From: Catajapyx aquilonaris
Lineage: Eukaryota
Assembly (NCBI GenBank): GCA_000934665.2
Contig: JYFJ02002897.1
Coordinates: forward strand, 1-49,199
Length of the DNA stretch: 49,199 nucleotides
Direction of reading: 5' to 3'
Shown: piece by piece, positions 7,765 through 40,973 of the stretch
Position numbering within the stretch: the stretch's first letter is position 1
Layout of the letters: every line of letters starts with the position of its first letter
Made by a program: the position numbers and the translations under genes
The notes under the pieces: model-generated
What the model was told of the DNA's origin: nothing
What the model saw: only the letters and a program-made list of their open reading frames with translations
The model's database searches: none

Positions 7765-9692
7765 ATGACGAGTTGTTATCAGGTTTGATTACATGTTTTC
7801 ACGACTAATATTTATGGGGATTGTAAAGGGAAAATATGCGCGTTAAGACGGTCTGTTCATGACCCAATAATTAATTCCAGCACGTGATACATTCACCGTG
7901 CGATTTATTTTAAACCACTTGAGACTGCAAGACTATGTCTGATAGTAAATTTAAAGCTTGTAATAATTTGAAGGTTCCAATACAAAAGTCCCTTTGCAGT
8001 TTTCAAGTTGGGGGTAGGATGAAAAGTTGCTGAATGTTTGCCCCAGCAACCAGTTCATTTGGGTGATGTTGACTTCCCTCTTTTATTTGCTGAAATAATT
8101 GCGCTGGAAAACTGGACAAATGTTGACCCTGCTCATTCCTGTTACCTACCATATAGGATGCAGTGAGGACCCTCAACTCCTTCCAGTCAACTCCAGCAAT
8201 GAGACAACTTAGGAAGAGTTCAGCGCCAAGTAATGTCAACATGACCAAACATTACTTGGACTTGCTTGGGATAACGACAGATGATTTGGACTCGCTAAAG
8301 ATCATTCACGTATCTGGGACCAAAGGGAAAGGGTCCACCTGCGCCTTATGTGAATCAATGTTGCGGCACAGGGGGTTGAAGACGGGGATGTTCACCTCTC
8401 CTCACCTGGTGTCGGTGAGGGAAAGGATCAGGATCAACGGGAAGCCTCTCAGCCAACAACAATTTGCTGGTTACTTCTGGGAAGTGAAGAAGAAACTTAG
8501 CTGCAGCGATTCCATGCCAGCGTACTTCATGTTCTTGACTGTGATGGCGTTCTGGGTTTTTGTTTCTGAGAAGGTTGACGTTGCTATTGTCGAGGTTGGG
8601 ATTGGTGGGACCAATGACAGCACCAATGTCCTTAGACGTCCGGCTGTTGTTGGCATTGCCTCTCTGGGGTTAGACCATGTCGCCACACTTGGAAATACAA
8701 TTGAGAGCATTGCTGCACACAAGGCTGGGATCATGAAACCTGGCGTGGTTGCAGTGACCTCACCCCACCAACCTGAATCTGCACTCCACGTCCTGCGACA
8801 ACATGCAGCTAAAACTGGTGTGAGTTCTGAGTTGTACTTGCAATCATAAGCCAGTGCAATATGCGAGAGAATAAGAAACAGGCCTTAATGGCATACCGAG
8901 TTTTGATTCAGCTTGTACTTGTACAATAAAATTTCTGTTCTCATTTTCAGTGTGAACTGCATGTAGCTGCTGAACTGATTTCACTTGCTGTAAAACTGGA
9001 GCTTGGGATAGAAGGTGATGTGCAGCAACTGAATGCAGCCTTGGCCTTGGAACTGTGTCACCGCTGGCTTGGTATTCCACCAATGGAAGTCACGAGTGAT
9101 GATGTCACGGCTCTGAAGCTATGCAAGTGGCCAGGGCGATGTCAAGTCCTGAAATATGGGCAACTCTCTTTCTATTTAGATGGAGCGCATACTATTGAGA
9201 GTATCCAGCACAGCGTTAACTGGTTTTCATCATCTGTCACCAATTGTGAAGCACCCAAACTGTTGATTTTTCATGCGACACGTGGTCGTGATGCACACTC
9301 TCTGTTAACGCCAATTGCCAAATGCCAGTTTCAGGCCACTATTTTCTGCACCCCAAATGCAAGCGACGACATCAGTGCAAGTTCAGGTGATCATCAATTC
9401 TCGATCGTCCACTCTGTAACACTTGCACTTGTAACTGATCTAAATTTCTCCCACAGATAATGCTGATCTAACTGTGACACTACAAGATCAACTCCGAACT
9501 TGCCAAATCCAACAAGATGCCTGGGTGTCACTAACATCTGATCCAAAGTCAATGGTGATCAGCAGTGCAGGGAGAGTTATTGAATGGATTCAGTCAGAGT
9601 ATGGTCACTGTAATCAAGCGCATATATTTATCACCGGGTCACTCCATTTGGTTGGGACATTTTTGGCAACCTTAGATTCAACAAGACAGTGA
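7765..9692 (+). CDS. FPGS: Folylpolyglutamate synthase paralog 1 (short, no leader seen). Exons 7765-7782, 8157-8819, 8951-9386, 9457-9692
   Basis: MTSCYQ|DAVRTLNS, IIHVSGTKGKGSTCA P-loop, FTSPHLVSVRERIRING, EVGIGG, WPGR, YLDGAHT, ITGSLHLVG. GT-AG introns are phase-consistent. Confidence 0.9.
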
Positions 9693-10621: not shown

Positions 10622-13600
10622 TTATGGCGTTCCAGGAGGTCTGTTCATCTGGTTGTCTGCACTCTCCTTCCAGTAGGACTTGATTGCATGGGCTACTGAT
10701 CGGGAGCGTAGTGGTGCGTCACCACTGGTGATGTCAGGCTGGATCACCGCCAATACACCCCCAACTAAGTGTAGTGAACCCATAACTAGGATCTGCGTGT
10801 GGTCAAAATCTTCCTTCATCCACCGGGGCCTCTCCTCGTCATCTTCACTGTCACCTAGCCACTCAAGGGCAGCGCTTATGGACGGCATTGTTGTCACTGA
10901 TTGGTGACACCTATTGTTTGCTCTGCTCTTATCATCCTCATCTTTGGACAAAAGCTCCATCCAGACCTTTCCTTGCAACTGGCACCGATGAAGTTGGTAC
11001 TGCCTTGACACAGTCATGTTAGCTTGGTCTGTAATATATACAAATGAAATTATATGCCTCGTCAACTTCACAAAGTTGGCGGAAAAAAATGCAACTGACC
11101 TGAATCATCGGTAACGACAGTGTCCACATTGTTGGTGCAAAACACAACTGCATTGAACCCGCAGCTGATGAGTCGATGCAGCAAACTCCTGGCATCCCTG
11201 TCTCCTGTGCTGTTGAAGAGCAGGCATCTGGCTACCTTCTTGTGCCCATGACTGGCTGCCTTGCTTGCCTCCTCAAACCACTCTACTCCGGCCTCAACAC
11301 TCTCCACTGTGTGAGCTCCATCCAAGAAATAAGTGATGGGACCTTTCGAGATGACCTGGGATCTTCCAGGCCAGTTGCATGATTGGAGACCACGGACAAT
11401 CTCCGACCCCACCTTGAAAGGTTTGCCAAGGCGATCACAAGCTTCACTTTCCGGCCTCCTGAGGCTTTCCAACATGTCATCCTGCAGCCAGAACTGGCAC
11501 AGTTGAAGTGCCAGAGCCGCGTTCAGTGCCTGCACTTTGCTGCTCAGTTTAATGGATTGCCGTCCCCAATCGTAAGCCTTGAAAGGAGGTGCCAGGTAGA
11601 GATTGACTGACTTCTCATCAGCCACCTTCTGAATAACTTCGAGAGCCTCAGGTGGCTGCCCTGGAGTAGTAAAAGCTGGAGCACCAGACTTGATTATGCC
11701 TGCCTTGTGAAAGGCTATTTCCTCAATGGTGTTTCCTAACAGTTTTGTGTGGTCTAGTCCAAGGGATGTTATGCCAACAGCCACAGGCTTTCTGCAATAA
11801 TAGAGTTGTGGTGGGAAAATTGATGTCACTGGACAAAAATGAGAGGATGTTGGACATGGTTGGAAGTAACACATGCAGGTGAGTCTTGAAATGGTTAAAG
11901 AAAATTGAAAATGCCAATTTAGCCTTACCTGATGACGTTGGTGCAATCATACAGTCCACCAATTCCAACTTCAATGATGGCTACATCAACTTTCTCAGTG
12001 CTGAAGATGTATAAAGCCATGATGGTGAGGAACTTAAAGTATGCTGGCATTGTTTCTGCGCCACTTCCATGAATCCTGCCCATGACTTCCCAGAAGTATG
12101 TCGCAAACTGGGCTTCCCCTATGGGGACCCCATTTATCCTGATTCGTTCCCTGACTGACACCAGATGAGGCGAGGTAAACATCCCTGTCTTCAATCCACG
12201 TTGAAGCAGCAATGATTCACAAAAGGCACAGGTGGATCCCTTGCCTTTAGTTCCAGACACATGTATTATTTTCATGGAATCCAGGTCATCCATGGTCACG
12301 CCGCAGGCTTCAAGGAACTTGGCCGACTCGGGCACATTTAAGTGAGGCTTGCGCACATGAGCAGGGCTAGCAAGGGTCTGGGCATTAGTCTGGAGAGAGT
12401 TAAGGGCCTGGATTGCATCCTGGAAACAAACACATCTTTTACTCCACATTGCATTGTGTAGAAGAATTGAGATGAGAGCAATAACAATAGTAATGAAGTC
12501 AAAAGCACATGCCCTGGAGTTCTTTAGCAGAGGAAGCACTAATCAATTCACATATGGTGTGGTGCTAGTATCAAGAAAGAATATAAGAATTAACACATCA
12601 TTATCACATAAGGTGACCCATAACTTAGGGGATAATCTAGAGGTGATATGACTGTAATAAACTAATAATGGACCTCACATAGGTGTGTATACCAAATCAC
12701 ATTATTATATCAGTAAAGTTCAAAGGCTTTACGGCCTTGACGAAGAATGAGTCAAGATTATGCAACTGGTGTCTGGGGACATGGGATTAAAAAGATATTA
12801 AGTCTTGTCAGTGGGAACTGAGGCTAGGTTGATAAATAGAGGTTTCTGGGTTGAGAAATGAATTAGGATGAATAAGTAACATCAAGGTAACATGTGATCT
12901 AAGTCAAATCAATCAGCTGGATAACAGGATACAGCTTAGTATCAATAGTGAGGGTAAATTTAAATCTGTGTATCATGAGTTCATGACTATTGTGTGACCA
13001 TCCATTGGATCAGTTGAATATGGAGATTAGCACAGTTAAGAAAGATTTGAGTAGAGGCATAGATTTGATTATTGCATAAATATTACAATTACATGACTTT
13101 GGCAGGTCAATGTATAGTCCTGCTGTACTGAGGCATCTCTAAATGCAGCTACCATCCTTCACAAATTAACATCTTTCCTGTTTTGTGCCCCGAGTTACAT
13201 AAGTAGCAAAGCAGTAACAATACACCAGGGCCTACCAAAATTCATTCATGGTTTTTATCATTCACTTAGCGTACTCATCCACATGCAAAATACATCACAA
13301 ATTGTGGAGAATGTATCACAACATTACTACATTTCTGTTGTGAAAGGGATCGCAAGAGCTTGTTAGGCAAAAATAGACTAATTTCTGTTGTAAGACAACA
13401 GGACAATTTCCAAAGTATTGAAATTGATTTCTTGTTGCCGTTGTGCATGATAGAAATTAGTAATAATGACCTCTGTGACCACCTACTAAAATTAATATAA
13501 CATATTAGTCTTGCTCTCTAGCCAAATTAGCCAAAATGTAGTTCTCAAAATCCACAATTTTCTGCACACTCATTGTACAACATTGCTCGCATGTTCCACA

Positions 13601-19519: not shown

Positions 19520-20626
19520 TCATTTACGCTTCACTTTACATAGGTTGACCTCTCCAGGATCATTAACTCCATGTACTGCCTTCAAATGCTGACTCATTCT
19601 CCCTCGACGATTGGTCCCAAGCTGACATTGTGTGCACCGATACAAGTACAACCCTGTGTGACGTGACACATGATCTTTCAACACGTCTCGCCTAAAAAAT
19701 GATTGTGAGCAGAATTCACATGGGAAGGGCCGGTCTGCAAGGTGGCTCCGTTTGTGCTGCGCTAAGTGAGAGCTCACACCATAAGCCTTTCCACACACAT
19801 CACACATGAAGCGCTTCTCACCTTGGCCATGTATAAGCCGCGAGTGCACAAGCAGTGAGCTGGCTTGTCTGAAAGTTTGTCCACACCTCTCACAAACATG
19901 CCGTTTCTCCCCGGTGTGTATGGCGCAATGTTCCTCGTATCCCTCTCTAGCAAAGAAACCCTTTCTGCACACCTGGCAATGATACTTGAACTCGCCTCGG
20001 TGGCGGGCTTGATGCATTTGGAACCCTCGCCATGTCTTTAATGTGCGGTCACATATTTTGCAGTGGTTGGGTCCAACTGATTTCTGGAGATTCTTCTCCC
20101 TGGTGTGTATGGCGCAATGTTCCTCGTATCCCTTTCTGGCAAAGAAACCCTTTCTGCACACCTGGCAATGATACTTGGACTCGCCTCGGTGGCGGGCCTG
20201 ATGCGTTTGGAACCCTCCCTGTGTCTTGAATGTGCGGTCACATATTTTGCAGTGGTTGGGTCCAACCGATTCCTGGAGATTCTTCTCCCCAGTGTGTATG
20301 GCGCAATGTTCCTCGTATCTCTTTCTGGCAAAGAAACCTTTTCTGCACACCTGGCAATGATATTTGAACTCTCCTCGGTGGCGGGCCTGATGCGTTTGGA
20401 ACCCTCGCCGTGTCTTGAATGTCCGGTCACATATTTTGCAGTGGTTGGGTCCAGCTGATTCCTGGTGATTCCACTGATGCTCCAGGCGCTGAGAGTCACT
20501 TGCAAACCTTTCCCCACATATGCTACATTTGTACGGAAACAATGGATGACTTCTCTTCTGGTTCTTCGTATCGCAACGGGAATCCAAAGAAGGACCTCTC
20601 TGCATGTCTTGCTTGCTTGACTTTCG
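19520..20626 (-). CDS. C2H2 cassette B (11 fingers, internal triplication), putative alternative terminal exon
   Basis: Acceptor ttccctttccag|CGA AAG TCA at 20626 (phase 0); open to the stop at 19520. Confidence 0.85.
   Translation of the reverse strand, partial: RKSSKQDMQRGPSLDSRCDTKNQKRSHPLFPYKCSICGERFASDSQRLEHQWNHQESAGPNHCKICDRTFKTRRGFQTHQARHRGEFKYHCQVCRKGFFARKRYEEHCAIHTGEKNLQESVGPNHCKICDRTFKTQGGFQTHQARHRGESKYHCQVCRKGFFARKGYEEHCAIHTREKNLQKSVGPNHCKICDRTLKTWRGFQMHQARHRGEFKYHCQVCRKGFFAREGYEEHCAIHTGEKRHVCERCGQTFRQASSLLVHSRLIHGQGEKRFMCDVCGKAYGVSSHLAQHKRSHLADRPFPCEFCSQSFFRRDVLKDHVSRHTGLYLYRCTQCQLGTNRRGRMSQHLKAVHGVNDPGEVNLCKVKRK
19905..20465 (-). repeat. Three tandem copies of a 189-bp (63-aa, two-finger) unit
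   Basis: atgt(g/c)cggtcacatattttgcagtggttgggtcc recurs at 20041, 20230 and 20419. Confidence 0.95.
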
Positions 20627-21802
20627 CTGGAAAGGGAAGGAACTTGCTAGTAATGCAAGATCTGTGGTCCAAAGCATTTTTATGCCATCCAGTTGCAATT
20701 TGGGGACATCTGGACATGTCACCACATCAAAGGAGAGATGAAACTGCAGAAAAATTGGCACAAACTAGCAACTAAATTGAAACTATTTTTAAGTTTCTTC
20801 TGAGTCTCATTAAGTTCTTGGGAGCTACTACAGATTGGCAGGCTTTTACTTCACACTGATTTTGAATTTTGTGTGTGGATGGATATCAGTTTGAAATAAA
20901 TACCACTTAGGAAATAAACAATAATAACCAACCAAAACACGGTACATGTGATATTTAATTTCTCGTGGGGTTCAAAATACAATATTCTCATTCTTACATC
21001 ACACTGGAATATAAATCCTACCCTAAAAATATGTGAACTTTATGCAAATTGAAGGAAGCATTTGTCTTGCGCACACAAGCATCACACACAACTAAATGTG
21101 ACTGTCCAAACTCAAAAGACTAATATAATTGTGCTTGCAAGTCATTTCAGTGAAAGCTACATTACCAACTTCTCTCGTGGTGGTGGCCACATCATGCCAG
21201 ATAGCCTTTATCGCTTCGGCTCCCCCCAACCAACCAACCATAGCTGCTTTATGTGATGAAATGCGGTCTTTATTGCAACTGCACAGCAGCAAAGGCTGGC
21301 ACAATACTACCATCATTATTGAATGATTTCATACACTTAGGGATTGCCACTCCAGAAAATAATCAGTTTCTAACACCTAAAACCAGCTCCTTGGTTGCTG
21401 TGCACATGCACGCATTATTTACATTTCCTGCGCAGAAGCTGTGACCAAATCACAACAGTACCCCACTGCATGCCATTGCAAGATTAAATTTTGCATTCCT
21501 TCACATCAAGCTAAAATGGCCTGAAGAATTTATGTTACGCACATGATAAAAGAATCAACCATTTCCATAACCTGCAGGCCGGTTGGTCATTGTAACAAAC
21601 TGGAAGCTACCATCACTTGGCTTTTAGAAACAGTGGCTGTAGCTTCACTACACAACTGTATCAACAAGCTTGGCATTATTAATGTGCACAACTCTGCACT
21701 TACATTAGGTAAGCCTGTACTTAGGCTCATATTCACTGAAGGTGCAATCCAGAAAAAAGGCCAAAACGTGAAAACCACCACAAATTTACCAACGATGGCA
21801 CT

Positions 21803-25277: not shown

Positions 25278-25793
25278 TTTGACCGGGGAAAAAAATTGAA
25301 TTACTTGTGCACACAATATGATACGTGTTAAATTATTTTAATAATTAAATATGCTAAAATTATTAACCGCACTGGCAGTCTTGGCTTAATCGTCAAAGTA
25401 CGGTTCGGACAGCGCCACCTGCGCTTCATTCGTTAAAGAGTTGGAATAATTGTGTATTGTTAATTGTAATTATTATATTTGCACTTTAGCCGTGTTTTAA
25501 AATGTCTCGTTAATATTTTGAGACTCGGGGCAGCCCAGGGGCCATTGAATCATGATGGCCCCCGTTGCACCACTCTAGTTGATACACTAGTTGATACAAG
25601 ACGCTCCGGATTTTTTGCGAACAAGTTTTGGCGCTTTTATGTTCATAAAATATGACTCGTTCAATACATTTGTTACTTCAACACTTTTGCACTTTCGGAT
25701 TTCAATAAGTAGACCGCCACAAGAAGGAAAGATCTGAGCCTGCTTGTGTTGTGCCGTAGTGTTATGTGACAGCGGAGACACTTTAAGAGGAAG

Positions 25794-26617
25794 ATGGCCA
25801 GTCTGGACGAGAAGCTGATTCAGGTGATGAAGCTGTACCCTAACTTGTACAACACTTCGTCGAGGCTGCACCGTGACAGCGGGATGAGGGAGACCAGCTG
25901 GCTCAACGTGGCACAGGAGCTGGAGATCTCAGGCGAGTACATGCTGAGGCGTGTACAGGCCGATTGTGCGAGCGGATCAGTTGTCCCTTGCAGTGTTGGA
26001 CGCACAGCGCAGATGGAAGAACCTGAGGGACCGCTTCACCAGGGAGAGACGCTTGCTGTTGCGGAGGCAGACTGAGAGCGACCCGAACTCTGTATGCCGG
26101 TGGCCGCTCTACGAGTCCATGCATTACTACTCGCAGTACTGCATGCTCCGGAAGTAAGCTGTCTTTAAGATCACTGGTTGTAGTTCCACTGCGACTGCTC
26201 ATTTCCAGATATCCGGGTGTAACTGATACTCCTGACCACAGAAAGGTGAAGAAGTCAGATGAAACGTCTGTGAAGGATGACCCAAGTAGCGATGCCGAGT
26301 CCACTGAATCGACTGAGGTTGCATCCCACGATGTTCTGTCACGGATGAGCACTCCTTCCCCTGAACTTTCCGAAGTGAGGCCATCGTCCGAGTCAAGCCG
26401 GGGCGGAGGTGACAAGCGGAAGGCAAGCAGCATCGCAGGCAGCAGCAGCCTGGAGCTGGACCTGTTGAGAGATCTGAGAAGACTGAGGGAGGACGACTCG
26501 GAGCTGTTTGGACGCCACGTTGCAGCCACCCTTCGAAGTCTCCCTATGCACAAGAGTGCACTGGCAAAGCTGAGAATACAGCAACTCCTGTATGAATTTG
26601 AGGTCAATGGTGAATAA
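25794..26617 (+). CDS. MADF-BESS transcription factor. Exons 25794-25932, 25994-26153, 26209-26617
   Basis: MADF pattern LIQVMKLYPNLYN...W..VAQEL...RRWKNLRDRFTRE...WPLYESM; BESS-like C-terminus DSELFGRHVAATLRSLP...AKLRIQQLLYE. The first intron is modelled as GC-AG. Confidence 0.87.
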
Positions 26618-35390: not shown

Positions 35391-35521
35391 GGGTTTTCCA
35401 AAGGCGTGACCTTTGCCGATATGAAGATGTCACAGGAGCATCATGCATGTGGTAGGAAAAACCATCATTTGACATGCAGTTTTTGGGATTTTCCGATATT
35501 GAACCGATCGGGAGTATAAAA
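35391..35521 (+). promoter_or_regulatory. kappaB-like sites and TATA box of AMP gene 1
   Basis: GGGTTTTCC 35391-35399, GGAAAAACC 35455-35463, GGGATTTTCC 35485-35494, TATAAAA 35515-35521. Confidence 0.7.
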
Positions 35522-35576
35522 GAGCTCCGAACTATTTGGGACACATTACAGTTTCTAGCTTATTAGTACTCTAAAC

Positions 35577-36055
35577 ATGTCTGGTCTGAAGATCTTCATT
35601 GTCCTGGCCATTTGCTGCCTTTATGCAGTGATGGCTCAATACCAAGGTCCTCATGGAATGCACGTGGCCAGATCTGACTCGGTTCATAATGGTCGAGTCG
35701 GACAGGTGAGTTTCGACTTCTGTGTTTTCCATGCTTTGTATTAATTGAAATGTCTGTTAGCCCCACTTTAGAGTGAACGGTGGAGGTGCCGGCAACAATG
35801 GTCGCAATTATGGTGTCGGATTGGACGGATCGTTGGGAACCAAGGTTTGGCAGAGCAGGAACGGAAGGCACAGCGTTGGAGTTGGAGGGACGTACGGACG
35901 AGACTTTGGAAAGTTCCAGGTTGGTTGTCTTTCTTTCAAGTTAATGGCTTGCACAGGAAAGGGTTTATTCATAAAGATGTTATAATTTTTAGGGGCAGCC
36001 CTGGCGCAGTCAGCCAAGGTGGTCAGCTGGTGCTGGTTACCGGTTTCGCTTCTAA
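35577..36055 (+). CDS. Diptericin/attacin-C-like glycine-rich antimicrobial peptide 1 (116 aa). Exons 35577-35705, 35761-35919, 35993-36055
   Basis: Signal peptide MSGLKIFIVLAICCLYAVMA; G-domain VNGGGAGNNGRNYGVGLDGSLGTKVWQSRNGRHSVGVGGTYGRDFG...PRWSAGAGYRFRF. Both introns are phase 0 GT-AG. Confidence 0.85.
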
Positions 36056-37163
36056 GAGAGACCATAAAATGGTCCGAAAAATTTCGTCATTTTCTACATA
36101 AAATATTATGTCATTGGTATTGAAATAAACTGATTTAAAATGTACAGATGTATAAATTGTTTTTGAACCTTGGCACTTCAGGCAGCCTGATTGTTGAATA
36201 CGTGCGAATTTAAGTGTTTCCCCCCAAATAGGTTCGCAATAAGACTCATAGCAGTGTGCATTTTAGCAGATGCAAAGCATAGTAATAATTTTGCATTACA
36301 CGTACGCGATTGCTTTCATATAGCATGAACCCAGCGGCAACCGCGACTCTTCAAGATAACCTTTAACACTTTGGCATGTGTTCAATTAATTTCTTGCAAA
36401 TTAATAACAAAGAAGCTCCTCTCTTGTCAGAAAAGTCAATATTATTATGACTTGTGTTAACTCATTAGCGATCAGTTCCCAATTTTTGCCGATAGGCCCT
36501 TTTATCCTGACATCTGAGAGCCACCCGTAAACCTGCCTTGTTCGTAGGGAGGGCTGACTTCTAGGATAAAAGAACACGCAAATGTGGAACAAAAATCTGC
36601 AAACGTAGAGTATACAGCTTCTGGACAAAGAGGAGAAAGACCTGGTTAACGGTGGCATTGCAACACTTCCCACAGTGTGAATATACATGGGCGGGTACAT
36701 TTTTATACCTTGGAGAGACATGCAAGTAAACACCAGCTTGATCGCCAGAGGCTAAATGACCACTTTAAAATAAAAAGCCTGTCTGACAGCCTGGCAGAAA
36801 TAGATCAATATTCTTAATGTCTGAAAACCTGCGTGCAAAAAATTGCAAAGACAATAAATTATCGGTGAGTTGGACTCTATAAGAATGAATCGTAATATTA
36901 TTCATTCCGTTGTTAACTTTTCTGCTAACTGCAATAATAATGTATTAAGTGAGAGTGATTTGCGTACATTATACTGCAAGATAAGGCCGATCAGCTGATA
37001 AACTAACTAAACGTGACTACGGTGTGCAACGGCACATGTTATTCCCAGACTGCATGTACTTCCCCAACCGGAAAATGTTCCTTCGCATATTGCTTGGTCA
37101 TGCGGCATAATCAATCCACCGCTCGAGTGGAATACTGTACTGGAAACTACTTCGAAAGCGTCA

Positions 37164-37265
37164 GGAATTTCCTAGCCGGACCTTCCCGGACTTTCCTTCA
37201 TTCGCGGAATCAGCACCTTTCAGTTGTAACAAGTGACATTTACTGATTTCTCAGCCAATATAAAA
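37164..37265 (+). promoter_or_regulatory. Clustered kappaB-like sites and TATA box of AMP gene 2
   Basis: GGAATTTCC 37164-37172, GGACCTTCCC 37178-37187, GGACTTTCC 37188-37196, TATAAAA 37259-37265. Confidence 0.65.
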
Positions 37266-37316
37266 CATGCATTGTAGCACCCTTGAGAATTAATTCCACT
37301 ACTCTTGGAGGCAAAG

Positions 37317-37872
37317 ATGCATACCGGAAAATTGTGTCTCATCCTTCTTATTTGCTGCATTTGGTCCGCAGTGTCTCAAAAAGCAGTCGATGTCGCTGGT
37401 TCTGACAAAGTTCACAATGGTCGAGTAGGCCAAGTGAGTATTCCCATTGTTTTGAAGTTTGCATGTTACTCTGCAATGAATTATTCCACTAAAATAATGT
37501 CGCCTAATTCATTTAAAACTTGTGCATCTTTGCAACCAGAACTATCCGGTATTGTTGATATTGTGTATATCTCTCTAGCCGCATTTTGGCTTAAGCGGAG
37601 GAGGTGGTGGCAACAATGCTCGCAACTACGGGGCTTCCCTGGATGGGTCCGTTGGCACCAAGGTGTGGCAAAGTAATAATGGACGTCACAGTGTTGGCGT
37701 TGGAGGCACCTACGGACGAGATTTTGGTCGATTCGAGGTTAGTGACTGTACAATATTATGATCAAAGGTTGTGCGAAATGGCCATTAATAGTTCAATTTT
37801 AATTTTCAGGGCCAGTCGTGGTCTGGTCGACCTCGATGGAGTGCAGGAGCCGGGTACAGGTTCCGTTTCTAG
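37317..37872 (+). CDS. Diptericin/attacin-C-like antimicrobial peptide 2 (112 aa), close paralog of peptide 1. Exons 37317-37433, 37579-37737, 37810-37872
   Basis: Signal peptide; SDKVHNGRVGQ|PHFGLSGGGGGNNARNYGASLDGSVGTKVWQSNNGRHSVGVGGTYGRDFGRFE|GQSWSGRPRWSAGAGYRFRF. Exon 2 and 3 lengths (159 and 63 nt) are identical to gene 1. Confidence 0.85.
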
Positions 37873-38416
37873 TCAACATTCATCAAGCCACATGTTGTAT
37901 CGAATTGTTTTTGGTTCAATAAATAATGGGTGTTAACGGATTTTTTGTCACCTTCATTCAAAAATTCATGCCCAGTGCCCCAAATAAAGATTAGGCACGA
38001 CAATATCATCAGAAGGCACGACATTATCATGGTTTCAAACAATAATGCTTCGCTGCCTGGCGGGGATGGGCTGAATTCACAAACAATCGAAAGGGGATGA
38101 AATGCACGCTACATGTCGTTTGGCCTTGGCAGAACCGGATTACGTGCATGACCATTGAACTTCCTCGAATCCAAACTACTCAGTACAGGTGCCAGTAGCA
38201 TATGTCGACTCATCGCCTGATGTAGTCTCCACCTGTATACAGTGAGAGTGAGTTATTTTTTAACCGTCTTTTCACAGCAGCTAAGAATATTTACAACTAT
38301 TCGCTTCGCAATTTTCTATCAGTAAGACCTGAATACAATATTACAATAATTCATCTAGAACAGATGAAGTCCAGGAAAATTAGGATAAACCAGCACTATA
38401 TAATTTTACCCAACAG

Positions 38417-39076
38417 ATGGAGCTTACAAAGGCGATCACTGTTTGCATTTGCTTGTTTGCAATAACGGATACAATTCCCACCACCAGCAGCCAGGAATCA
38501 GATGCGACAGTAGGTGTTGTTCACACGCAATTCGGAAATCATGTTGTTGTTAAATAGTGGGCGTCATTAAATCATTCTCAGGAGGACCCTGGTCTAACAG
38601 AAGAGAACAACCCTGGTCCACCAGGCGGAAGAGGCAAAGGCAGAGGCAGAGGGCCACCTCTTGGACACCCTCACAAAAATCGTACTGGCCCTCCATTTGG
38701 CCACCCACACCAGAACAGGACAGGACCACCTTTTGGACACCCTCACAAAAATCGTACTGGCCCTCCATTTGGCCACCCACACCAGGACAGGACAGGACCA
38801 CCATTTGGACACCCACATCAGAATAGGACGGGACCACCTTTTGGACATCCTCATCAGAACAGGGCTAGACCACCGAGAGCTCGCGGTCCAAAAAACAAAG
38901 ATGGCAAGGGGCGAGGGTCCAAAAATAAAGGAAACAAGTGGAGAGGTCGTGGGAAAGGAAACAGGTCAGCGGAGGTCACCACACTGGAGGCAGACGGCGA
39001 GTACTCTGTGGAATATGTGAACGCATCAGAAGGAATCTCGGACGGAATTGATGGCAGGTCTGTCTCTGGTATATGA
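38417..39076 (+). CDS. Secreted Gly/Pro/His/Arg-rich repeat protein, six GPP(F/L)GHPH(K/Q)(N/D)R(T/A) units. Exons 38417-38509 and 38582-39076
   Basis: TATAAT near 38396; signal-like MELTKAITVCICLFAITDT; phase-0 GT-AG intron; exon 2 frame is open for 164 codons. This frame is missing from the ORF track. Confidence 0.75.
38651..38866 (+). repeat. 36-bp coding tandem repeat x6 with a 72-bp higher-order duplication
   Basis: ttggacaccctcacaaaaatcgtactggccctccatttggccacccacaccag occurs at 38661 and 38733. Confidence 0.92.
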
Positions 39077-39767
39077 AAAACACAGGACGACCTTGAAAGA
39101 AAGAATAATCAGAGCCGCACAATGTATTGATTTTGAAATTATAATGTGGAATATAACAGGTATTGTTGCGTAATGACTATCAAAGATGTCAACGATATAC
39201 TTAGCAATTAAAGGCTTGGGATGTCAGTGCTGTTTTAAGGCTTAATTTGCGTATCGTAGAAGATTTGAAATCTGATTATTGAACTCTCCATTATGATGGA
39301 ATATAATGTGCGTATAGGCCTATGTTTTTTTTCAAGCTTCCTCCTATGATGTTGTAATAATTTTAATCTTAATAAAACTGACATGTCTATAGGAAATTAC
39401 CTTTTGAAGATTCGATCGCGCAATGCTTAGTCCAATCTCGACAATGCAATGATGTGATTCTGATCGTTATGGGTAGCAGCTTTCCACACCAGTAAGGAGC
39501 AATAATTAATTTGGATTTGTGTTAATTCGGAGTCAATATTCCATTCCAAACTGATGAATGGAAAAGATTAACTTTGTGGCTTATAGTATTCCTACTAGAA
39601 AATCATATTTTTACAAATGGACTTGAAGTGATTGCGACTTTCAATCCAGTTGACATTGATCGGAATCGACTACAGTTCGGAATTAAATTGACCTGCGGAA
39701 TTCAGATGGCCACCATTCATTTCAAAACATGTTTGTACCACCTTGGTTTGTACTTGATGTACCGGCG

Positions 39768-39898
39768 GAAAACGAGAGAACAATCTGACGTCATCGTTTC
39801 TTCCATTGTTGCTTTTTGTTGACACTGTTTACTCATATTGTTCTGTGAGGGTATTTCCATGGAAACCTTGATGACGTCAGATCGTTCTCTCATTTTTC
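39768..39898. repeat. Short inverted repeat (MITE-like) carrying two CRE motifs and a kappaB-like site
   Basis: gaaaacgagagaacaatctgacgtcatc versus gatgacgtcagatcgttctctcatttttc; TGACGTCA at 39786 and 39872; GGGTATTTCC at 39849-39858. Confidence 0.7.
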
Positions 39899-39957
39899 GT
39901 ACATTATTCATGGAGAACTTTGGAATCAAACTTAATATATTTTTAAAACTCTTAATC

Positions 39958-40088
39958 GGTTATTTTCCCCAAGAGTAGGAAAATCCCAACTTGTTTAGAG
40001 CTATGCATTTCACTCTGTTCGGGTTATGGCAGCAAAAAAACCCAGATGTCGGCGTCACAACGAGGAAGCATGGGCGATGGTTATAAAG
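39958..40088 (+). promoter_or_regulatory. kappaB-like sites and TATA box of AMP gene 3
   Basis: GGAAAATCCC 39978-39987 (reverse complement GGGATTTTCC, identical to the site at gene 1); ttattttcccc 39960-39970; TATAAAG 40082-40088. Confidence 0.7.
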
Positions 40089-40122
40089 AAGGACTGGTTG
40101 CCAACCCCATAGAAGTGAAACC

Positions 40123-40973
40123 ATGAAGATCTTATTGATTATTCTAGCCTTAGCTGCGGTGGTGACATGTCAACGGAACATGTCATCAGACACAACCTCG
40201 CGACAGATGCCTCGACTGCACCTTCCTCCAGTGGTGTCACGACCCAGTCTTCCAAACGTACAGGTCGGTTCATGTAACATTCGACGACCAACCGTCATTA
40301 TTTTGTTGGTTTTGCGTGACCAGGTTAGTGGAGGTGGCGGTGGAAGTGACCTGAGGAACTTTGGCGGATCCTACAATGTTCGTGTGGGAAGCGATTTGTA
40401 CCACAGCCCCAACGGTCGCCATCACATATCGGGCCATGTTAACCATGGGAATAACTTCAAAGTTGATCAGGTACAGACACAACATTCCGTCATTTCTTTG
40501 CTTACGTAAAGCAGCATCCTCACACCTCACTCCATTTCAGAGACGTATATAGGGTCGAAAAAAAACATTTCACGCTGATAGAGTGCTGATGGTTATTATG
40601 CATCTACATATAGTATGTTTCAGTACAATTAGTATTAGCTCCAAAATAGCGTAACTTTGCCAGTTGAAGTTATTTCAAGTAGGCCTATATTAAACAAAGA
40701 GAAAAACACTCAATTTCTAATGTACAGATGGGTTGACGTAGCACACTTTTTGAAGGGAAGGTATAGGCCTATATACTGATGGTGATGATATATGAAGGCA
40801 AGGAGATTAAAACGCCAAGTCAGTGTGACGTCCTTTATGAATTATTACAGGCCACTGCTGGTCACTGCAACTCACCCACATGCAATTTTTTTCAGGGTGC
40901 CTGGAGGGGAAACCCATCTTATGGAGGAGGTCTGACGTACAAATTCAACCTTCCCGGGCGTCGGAAGAAGTAA
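40123..40973 (+). CDS. Diptericin-like antimicrobial peptide 3 with Pro-rich domain (121 aa). Exons 40123-40263, 40324-40470, 40896-40973
   Basis: Signal MKILLIILALAAVVTC; P-domain RLHLPPVVSRPSLPNVQ|VSGGGGGS; LYHSPNGRHHISG; GNPSYGGGLTYKFNLPGRRKK. Phase-0 introns fall at about the same positions as in genes 1 and 2. Confidence 0.83.

Follow-up and report, generated by a model that had tools for sequence, protein, structure and literature searches.

The question raised by this locus is whether a group of small, split genes on contig JYFJ02002897.1 of Catajapyx aquilonaris (assembly GCA_000934665.2, positions 1 to 49,199 of the forward strand) encodes antimicrobial peptides (AMPs) of the diptericin and attacin type, and what such genes would mean for the family if their host is not a fly. 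The window, by which we mean the whole stretch of 49,199 nucleotides (nt) that was analysed, contains at positions 35391-40973 three co-oriented three-exon genes on the + strand, which we call G1, G2 and G3. We consider it probable that these form a tandem cluster of three paralogous arthropod diptericin/attacin-like glycine-rich AMP genes, and that the host is not a fly.

Splicing the exons by coordinate with a script gave products of 116 amino acids (aa) for G1, 112 aa for G2 and 121 aa for G3, from genes spanning 35577-36055, 37317-37872 and 40123-40973 (+) respectively. Each coding sequence has a length divisible by three and a single stop at its end, and all six introns are in phase 0 and bounded by GT..AG, with lengths of 55 and 73 nt in G1, 145 and 72 nt in G2 and 60 and 425 nt in G3. 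The bacterial-style list of open reading frames (ORFs) breaks the three genes into pieces. The exons are as follows, where bits and E values refer to a profile of relatives alone and X5 is a sequencing run of the same organism, both described further below.

35577-35705 (+): G1 exon 1, 43 codons, signal peptide and short N-terminal region; donor used in an X5 contig
35761-35919 (+): G1 exon 2, 53 codons, glycine-rich core, 80.8 bits; acceptor used in an X5 contig
35993-36055 (+): G1 exon 3, the C-terminal 20 codons ending GAGYRFRF, then a stop, E 3.3e-4; no RNA joint seen
37317-37433 (+): G2 exon 1, 39 codons, signal peptide; in a spliced X5 contig
37579-37737 (+): G2 exon 2, 53 codons, glycine-rich core, 78.4 bits; in a spliced X5 contig
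37810-37872 (+): G2 exon 3, 20 codons and stop, E 2.2e-5; in a spliced X5 contig
40123-40263 (+): G3 exon 1, 47 codons, signal peptide and moderately Pro-rich stretch; without RNA confirmation
40324-40470 (+): G3 exon 2, 49 codons, divergent glycine-rich core, 30.5 bits, E 4.2e-8; 35% identity to G1 exon 2
40896-40973 (+): G3 exon 3, 25 codons and stop, ending in Gly then basic residues, E 1.3

Intron 2 occupies one and the same column of the alignment in G1, G2 and G3. The first intron of G3 is offset by 4 codons from that of G1 and G2, so the intron positions are comparable and not identical. The original prediction, which was made from the letters alone, had described three co-oriented genes for glycine-rich peptides of secreted type, each with two phase-0 introns at comparable positions, and this tandem of three-exon genes is real. 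Scanned in six frames with the profile of the family, the window yielded no further copies. Intron 1 of G3 (40264-40323, 60 nt) keeps the reading frame of the exons on either side open, and a product which retained it would therefore still be translatable.

The N-termini of the three products are hydrophobic (10-aa hydropathy of 3.4-3.6). With signal-peptide cleavage sites that were assumed rather than taken from a dedicated predictor, the mature peptides are about 90-105 residues long, with 17-22 Gly, no Cys and a net charge of +7 to +10; on the same assumption G1 has a mature mass of 10.4 kDa and G2 of 9.7 kDa. The products therefore have the layout of the family, in which a signal peptide precedes a mature peptide of ~90-100 aa that is cationic, rich in glycine and free of Cys. 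The mature parts of G1 and G2 are identical at 61 of 76 positions (80%) and G3 is identical to either at 25-27 of 75 positions (33-36%). From these alignments G1 and G2 appear to be recent duplicates, and G3 is probably a divergent paralogue of older origin, in which a moderately Pro-rich stretch precedes the glycine run.

To place the peptides in a family, we aligned the three middle exons and searched the resulting profile with HMMER against 1.84 billion representative proteins. It found 17 matches at E ≤ 1e-3, 14 of which were judged family-like; these are 71-228 aa long and align over the whole mature peptide. The best was from the springtail Allacma fusca (P0002, E = 2.8e-12), and the other named sources were the scorpion Hadrurus spadix, the spider Araneus ventricosus, the horseshoe crab Tachypleus and the amphipods Trinorchestia and Hyalella. 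The remaining family-like matches came from two bdelloid rotifer assemblies and from six metagenome or ENA records. UniRef names the Araneus match an 'Attacin C-terminal domain-containing protein', and this protein (A0A4Y2EKY6) is an accepted family member to which the window genes are similar over the whole mature peptide. One of the metagenome or ENA records, P0014, is a diptericin-type protein (E = 1.9e-4 over the whole library) with its blocks in the order Pro-rich stretch, glycine run, KVW.S.NGRHS and C-terminal aromatic motif. Identity to G1 and G2 was 41-43 of 76 positions for the Allacma protein and 31-32 of 71 for P0014; no pair within the match set comes near the divergence of G3.

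Three matches were set aside, as short glycine-rich pieces of the profile had aligned to long repetitive proteins: P0001 from Closterium (1478 aa, 21 stretches), P0012 of the bacterial YncE family and P0013 from Haliotis (1041 aa, 13 stretches).

When only the 14 relatives were used to build a profile, it recovered the spliced products at 123 bits for G2, 120 bits for G1 and 58 bits for G3, with the best of 900 composition-matched shuffles reaching 10 bits, so the match is not explained by glycine richness. Among 2326 six-frame ORFs the same profile also recovered the third exons of G1 and G2, which had been outside the query (E = 3.3e-4 and 2.2e-5); the third exon of G3 was weak (E = 1.3). 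The assignment of these genes to a diptericin/attacin-like glycine-rich family is thus upheld by the profile searches. The fly diptericin motifs quoted in the original prediction are borne out by an 82-aa diptericin analogue in print (PMC6271921), which displays the same blocks as the window genes and P0014. When G1 exon 2 was compared with longer proteins through a word index, 18 candidates came back, none at E ≤ 0.01. The look-alikes found by a protein language model in the Atlas included Gloverin/Attacin_C, Diptericin-D and Attacin clusters at 0.86-0.87, and the top three rows were viral hypothetical proteins at 0.87-0.89; all are below 0.9 and are taken as leads only.

The relatives also say something of gene structure. 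The ORFs of P0003, P0005 and P0015 end a few residues past the position of intron 2, continuing with Val as would be read from a GT donor, and those of P0003, P0006, P0011 and P0015 start just ahead of the position of intron 1. These starts and ends suggest that both intron positions may be conserved in other lineages. The members from the rotifer assemblies (P0005 and P0018 from Didymodactylos carnosus and P0011 from Rotaria sp.) lie on short contigs of 587-9391 bases, and might be genuine genes of the rotifers, genes acquired horizontally, or contamination from an arthropod.

The host was placed with the neighbouring genes, as the original prediction had proposed. ACADM was dropped as a marker: its identity is 85-92% whether the comparison is with insects, with fishes or with a hemichordate, and it is therefore uninformative. 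The FPGS phylogeny (33 rows) placed the two FPGS copies of the window as sisters (93/91) inside an arthropod clade of 22 rows (93/98), and outside both the 14-row insect clade (94/91) and the Diptera (100/100). That the host is not a fly is thereby supported, and the genes are not diptericins in the strict sense which requires a host within the Diptera. As the tree holds no crustacean, myriapod or springtail FPGS, the host can be called only an arthropod outside the sampled insects; its own proteins were absent from the protein collections searched. The two FPGS copies are convergent (8157-9460 on the + strand and 10622-12542 on the - strand) and 55% identical, and represent a lineage-specific duplication. 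Between 15300 and 28300 on the - strand lies a run of C2H2 zinc-finger genes, with internally repeated finger blocks in an ORF at 19520-20764, one weak zf-AD match (E = 0.001, under the cut-off) and a MADF-type ORF at 25770-26075; the zf-AD and MADF matches fit an arthropod host. No Rfam family was found in the window.

RNA-type support for the gene models came from sequencing runs of the same organism. Five are listed, four of DNA type, which are possibly the source of the window, and X5, which belongs to a separate study, has no kind on record and contains 24% of the sampled words. Contigs of X5 and of the DNA run X1 were both mapped onto the region. One X5 contig (depth 84.6) exactly skips intron 1 of G1 and another of 401 nt (depth 8.85) exactly skips both introns of G2, so that X5 supports 3 of the 6 introns; X1 contained none of the splice joints seen in X5. 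Because its contigs lack introns which the DNA run keeps, we treated X5 as RNA-derived. G1 and G2 are spliced and are present in this RNA-like assembly.

We also predicted the fold of the closest named relative, P0002 from Allacma, with AlphaFold2, from a family alignment of 16 rows, three of them the window exons. The mean predicted local distance difference test (pLDDT) score is 85.8, rising to 91-93 over residues 41-110, and the model has a signal helix followed by 4-5 long antiparallel strands. The sheet is confident although only 16 sequences were aligned, and published work describes the family as lacking a structural model.

Several results weigh against the genes being members of an antibacterial diptericin/attacin-like family, or against parts of the gene models. 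Pfam Attacin_C, a check which the original prediction had proposed, matched none of the 10 single-exon pieces at E ≤ 10 in a scan confined to exon pieces; the only Pfam rows among these pieces were two unrelated weak ones in G3 exon 2. Among the 14 relatives, Attacin_C (PF03769) gave 22.4 bits for P0004 and 22.8 bits for P0014, under the cut-off of 28.8, and nothing for the other 12. The InterProScan column for the published springtail protein reads 'N/A' (PMC10051947). A family tree of 14 rows and 78 columns (P0003, P0005, P0015 and P0018 were excluded as truncated or duplicate) supported only the pairing of G1 with G2 (91/85) and that of the two amphipods, and is therefore silent on the host. 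Foldseek found no match to the P0002 model at E ≤ 0.001, the best being trimeric-autotransporter membrane anchors at E = 0.026-0.03, which were driven partly by the signal-peptide helix, and VIA-align reached a best Z of 5.8, below a meaningful level, with gasdermin-like pores, pseudopilins and barrel proteins. As these fold matches are at noise level, a membrane-inserting sheet or one resembling an outer membrane protein (OMP) is an idea and not a result. None of the listed runs is recorded as RNA, and X5 has no contig with a joint for intron 2 of G1 or for either intron of G3. A further X5 contig (40776-41018, depth 2.7) is unspliced across the acceptor of G3 intron 2. Finally, the cited literature contains no activity test of a non-insect member.

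The absence of G3 splice joints, together with the unspliced contig, means that the G3 model is drawn from sequence and homology, and G3 might instead be a paralogue that is decaying or silent and does not work as a gene. We think this unlikely. G3 is just 33-36% identical to G1 and G2, its third exon barely fits the profile of the relatives, its donors (GTCGGT and GTACAG) are weaker, and the X5 assembly holds one unspliced and no spliced contig of it. However, its frame is intact over three exons with phase-0 GT..AG introns, its second exon scores E = 4.2e-8, it keeps a signal peptide, a TATA box and an exact kappaB decamer, and an absence of expression cannot be demonstrated from contigs.

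This decamer leads to how the cluster would be controlled. The original prediction had reported TATA boxes with nearby kappaB-like motifs, one of them common to G1 and G3, and both are present. The promoter features read from the sequence are listed below.

35485-35494 (+): kappaB-type decamer GGGATTTTCC of G1, exact copy, 21 nt upstream of the TATA box
35515-35522 (+): TATA box of G1, TATAAAAG, 62 nt ahead of the ATG
37164-37196 (+): two kappaB-like 9-mers of G2, GGAATTTCC at 37164 and GGACTTTCC at 37188, 24 nt apart and 63-95 nt ahead of the TATA box
37259-37265 (+): TATA box of G2, 58 nt before the ATG
39978-39987 (-): second exact copy of GGGATTTTCC, of G3, 95 nt ahead of the TATA box
40082-40088 (+): TATA box of G3, 41 nt before the ATG

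The decamer, which we take to be the mammalian IL-6 kappaB site, occurs exactly twice in the 49,199 bases (mean in shuffled sequence 0.13; 0 of 100 shuffles reached 2), and both copies are close to a core promoter, within ~145 nt upstream of the family genes G1 and G3. The promoters of G1-G3 are otherwise non-alignable, and the common decamer is therefore not a duplication leftover. These counts support the view that the promoters carry canonical, if predicted, kappaB-type motifs. It is distinctly unlikely, in our view, that the genes encode AMPs which are controlled by other factors (GATA, Forkhead, JAK/STAT or developmental) and not through the kappaB-like motifs. Such control would agree with the looser patterns, which are not enriched window-wide (GGGRNNYYCC has 12 matches and 17 of 100 shuffles reach 12), and with the promoter of G2, which lacks the exact decamer and has instead two 9-mers of modest significance (3 window matches to the pattern, with 9 of 100 shuffles reaching 3); the sites are also predicted from sequence. 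The position of both exact copies just upstream of family genes, where 0.13 are expected per window and the promoters otherwise do not align, argues against it.

If the locus is a tandem cluster of diptericin/attacin-like AMP genes, its working would follow that of the fly diptericins and attacins. The fly Diptericins are regulated by Imd and both are needed to survive Providencia rettgeri (PMC6398976). By analogy, infection would activate a Rel-family factor which binds the kappaB sites and drives transcription of G1-G3. In each gene the signal peptide would come from exon 1 together with the N-terminal region, the core rich in glycine from exon 2 and the C-terminal motif from exon 3. Guided by its signal peptide, the product would be secreted into the haemolymph and cleaved to a Cys-free cationic peptide, which may kill mainly Gram-negative bacteria at the cell envelope through its glycine-rich beta-sheet domain. 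The least likely alternative is that the genes are family members with a constitutive role, as secreted glycine-rich proteins of gland or venom, gut or cuticle, or symbiont control. It would agree with the name of the scorpion relative's record, BLTX179, with the presence of G1 and G2 in the X5 assembly, which stems from an animal without known challenge, and with the cited literature, which gives no activity or induction data for non-insect members. Against it, canonical kappaB decamers adjoin the TATA boxes, the peptides are cationic and Cys-free and the fly family is Imd-regulated and needed for defence (PMC6398976).

What would such a cluster add to the family? The original prediction had argued that a host other than a fly would bear on the origin of the diptericin/attacin G-domain, and members from outside the Diptera are in fact already in print. 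One label in that literature has to be read with care, as Armadillidium is an isopod crustacean. The ten Armadillidium sequences labelled 'Myriapoda' in Supplementary Table S1 of PMC10051947 therefore make the 'Myriapoda clade' of that paper a crustacean clade. The same paper describes springtail 'diptericins' of 108-125 aa which group in its tree with sequences from Diptera, Araneus and Armadillidium, and its diptericin set includes Araneus A0A4Y2EKY6 and A0A4Y2PDN5, which are our match P0007 and its cluster mate P0019. These published proteins of Collembola, isopods and spiders resemble the window genes in having a signal peptide followed by a Cys-free, glycine-rich peptide of ~90-100 aa, in the glycine run, the block KVW.S.N.RHS.GVG and the C-terminal G.G..Y.[FY]RF, and in carrying no InterPro domain call; O. 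cincta Diptericin1 visibly bears the blocks of G1 and G2. The springtail proteins, like G1 and G2, have no Pro-rich N-terminal domain. The window differs in that its three copies are clustered and that their introns and promoters are defined; the word 'intron' does not occur in PMC10051947, and no gene structure is given there.

The dipteran diptericins of Protophormia and Drosophila have a glycine-rich domain and the same motif order as the window genes, and differ in having a Pro-rich N-terminal domain (P-domain), which G1 and G2 lack, and in their hosts, since ours falls outside the Diptera. Pro makes up 2 of the 29 residues before the glycine run in G1 and 1 of 25 in G2 (4-7%), compared with 5 of 33 in G3 and 6 of 30 in P0014. 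As they are almost without proline in this stretch, G1 and G2 have no fly-diptericin P-domain and resemble prolixicins, which have the G-domain only; G3 bears a partial resemblance to the fly layout. The hemipteran prolixicins of Rhodnius and Cimex are attacin/diptericin-like peptides of ~9 kDa without a P-domain, encoded by neighbouring genes (PMC11180110). G1 and G2 agree with this definition in having a diptericin/attacin-like G-domain, no P-domain, a mass of about 9-10 kDa and clustered genes, prolixicin being compared here by its description. Prolixicins have a predicted attacin-C domain (PMC11180110), whereas the exon pieces of the window have no Pfam match to it. Attacins (Pfam Attacin_N and Attacin_C) belong to the same glycine-rich domain superfamily, but are about twice as long, with two G-domains and an N-terminal domain, an architecture which is absent from the window genes. 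Judged by these similarities, the locus belongs to a known pan-arthropod diptericin/attacin-like family. With members from Collembola, isopods, Araneus and Hemiptera already published (PMC10051947, PMC11180110), the argument for novelty fails; the locus extends the family by one lineage and is no reason to reopen the matter of origin.

Two further features lie inside the cluster, between G2 and G3.

38204-38247 (+): GX 5' non-coding exon, 44 nt next to the donor seen in a contig, the start of which may lie further out; joint 38247 to 38417, GT..AG
38417-38509 (+): GX exon with ATG and signal peptide, 31 codons
38582-39076 (+): GX last coding exon, cationic and Pro/Gly/His-rich, with six 12-aa repeats and an acidic tail
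39766-39899 (no strand assigned): element resembling a miniature inverted-repeat transposable element (MITE), 134 nt, with 41-nt inverted arms which are 80% complementary and a 52-nt spacer

GX is a fourth, expressed gene (38204-39076, +), both introns of which are spliced out in X5 contigs. Its product of 195 aa has a signal peptide for secretion and is cationic, with basic flanks and an acidic C-terminal tail, and its six Pro/Gly/His-rich repeats of 12 aa, with a 36-nt period between 38650 and 38874, each contain an N-x-T sequon. A search limited to Pfam and the Atlas found neither a Pfam family nor an Atlas look-alike for GX, which might be another immune peptide precursor. The MITE-like element lies ~80 nt upstream of the kappaB site of G3 and has a DNA-run depth of 26797, compared with ~33 in neighbouring bins; this is ~800x that of single-copy sequence, and the element must therefore have hundreds of genomic copies.

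Taken further than we would ourselves, these observations allow a bolder reading, in which the cluster preserves an ancestral form of G-domain gene, with two fixed phase-0 introns and NF-kB control, that predates the arthropod radiation and perhaps the arthropods. The greater age would follow from the relatives in two bdelloid rotifer assemblies and from the ORFs which break at the intron positions. G3 would then keep the combined P-domain and G-domain layout which is generally regarded as dipteran, GX would be a proline-rich antimicrobial precursor of a new kind, and the 4-5 strands would form an OMP-like or pore-like beta-meander. We regard this combination as quite improbable.

Returning to the probable reading, a cluster of diptericin/attacin-like AMP genes in an unannotated arthropod outside the sampled insect clade, the locus gives a family known chiefly from flies a further, well-supported example, for which the exons and introns, the promoter motifs and some RNA support are described. 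It is also useful for annotation, as G1-G3 were missed by prokaryote-style ORF callers and by Pfam. Only the unexplained neighbour GX, with its Pro/His repeats, and the confident beta-sheet model go beyond what was to be expected. For the family as a whole, the cluster is relevant to the idea of an old glycine-rich domain in arthropods, and leaves that idea unchanged.

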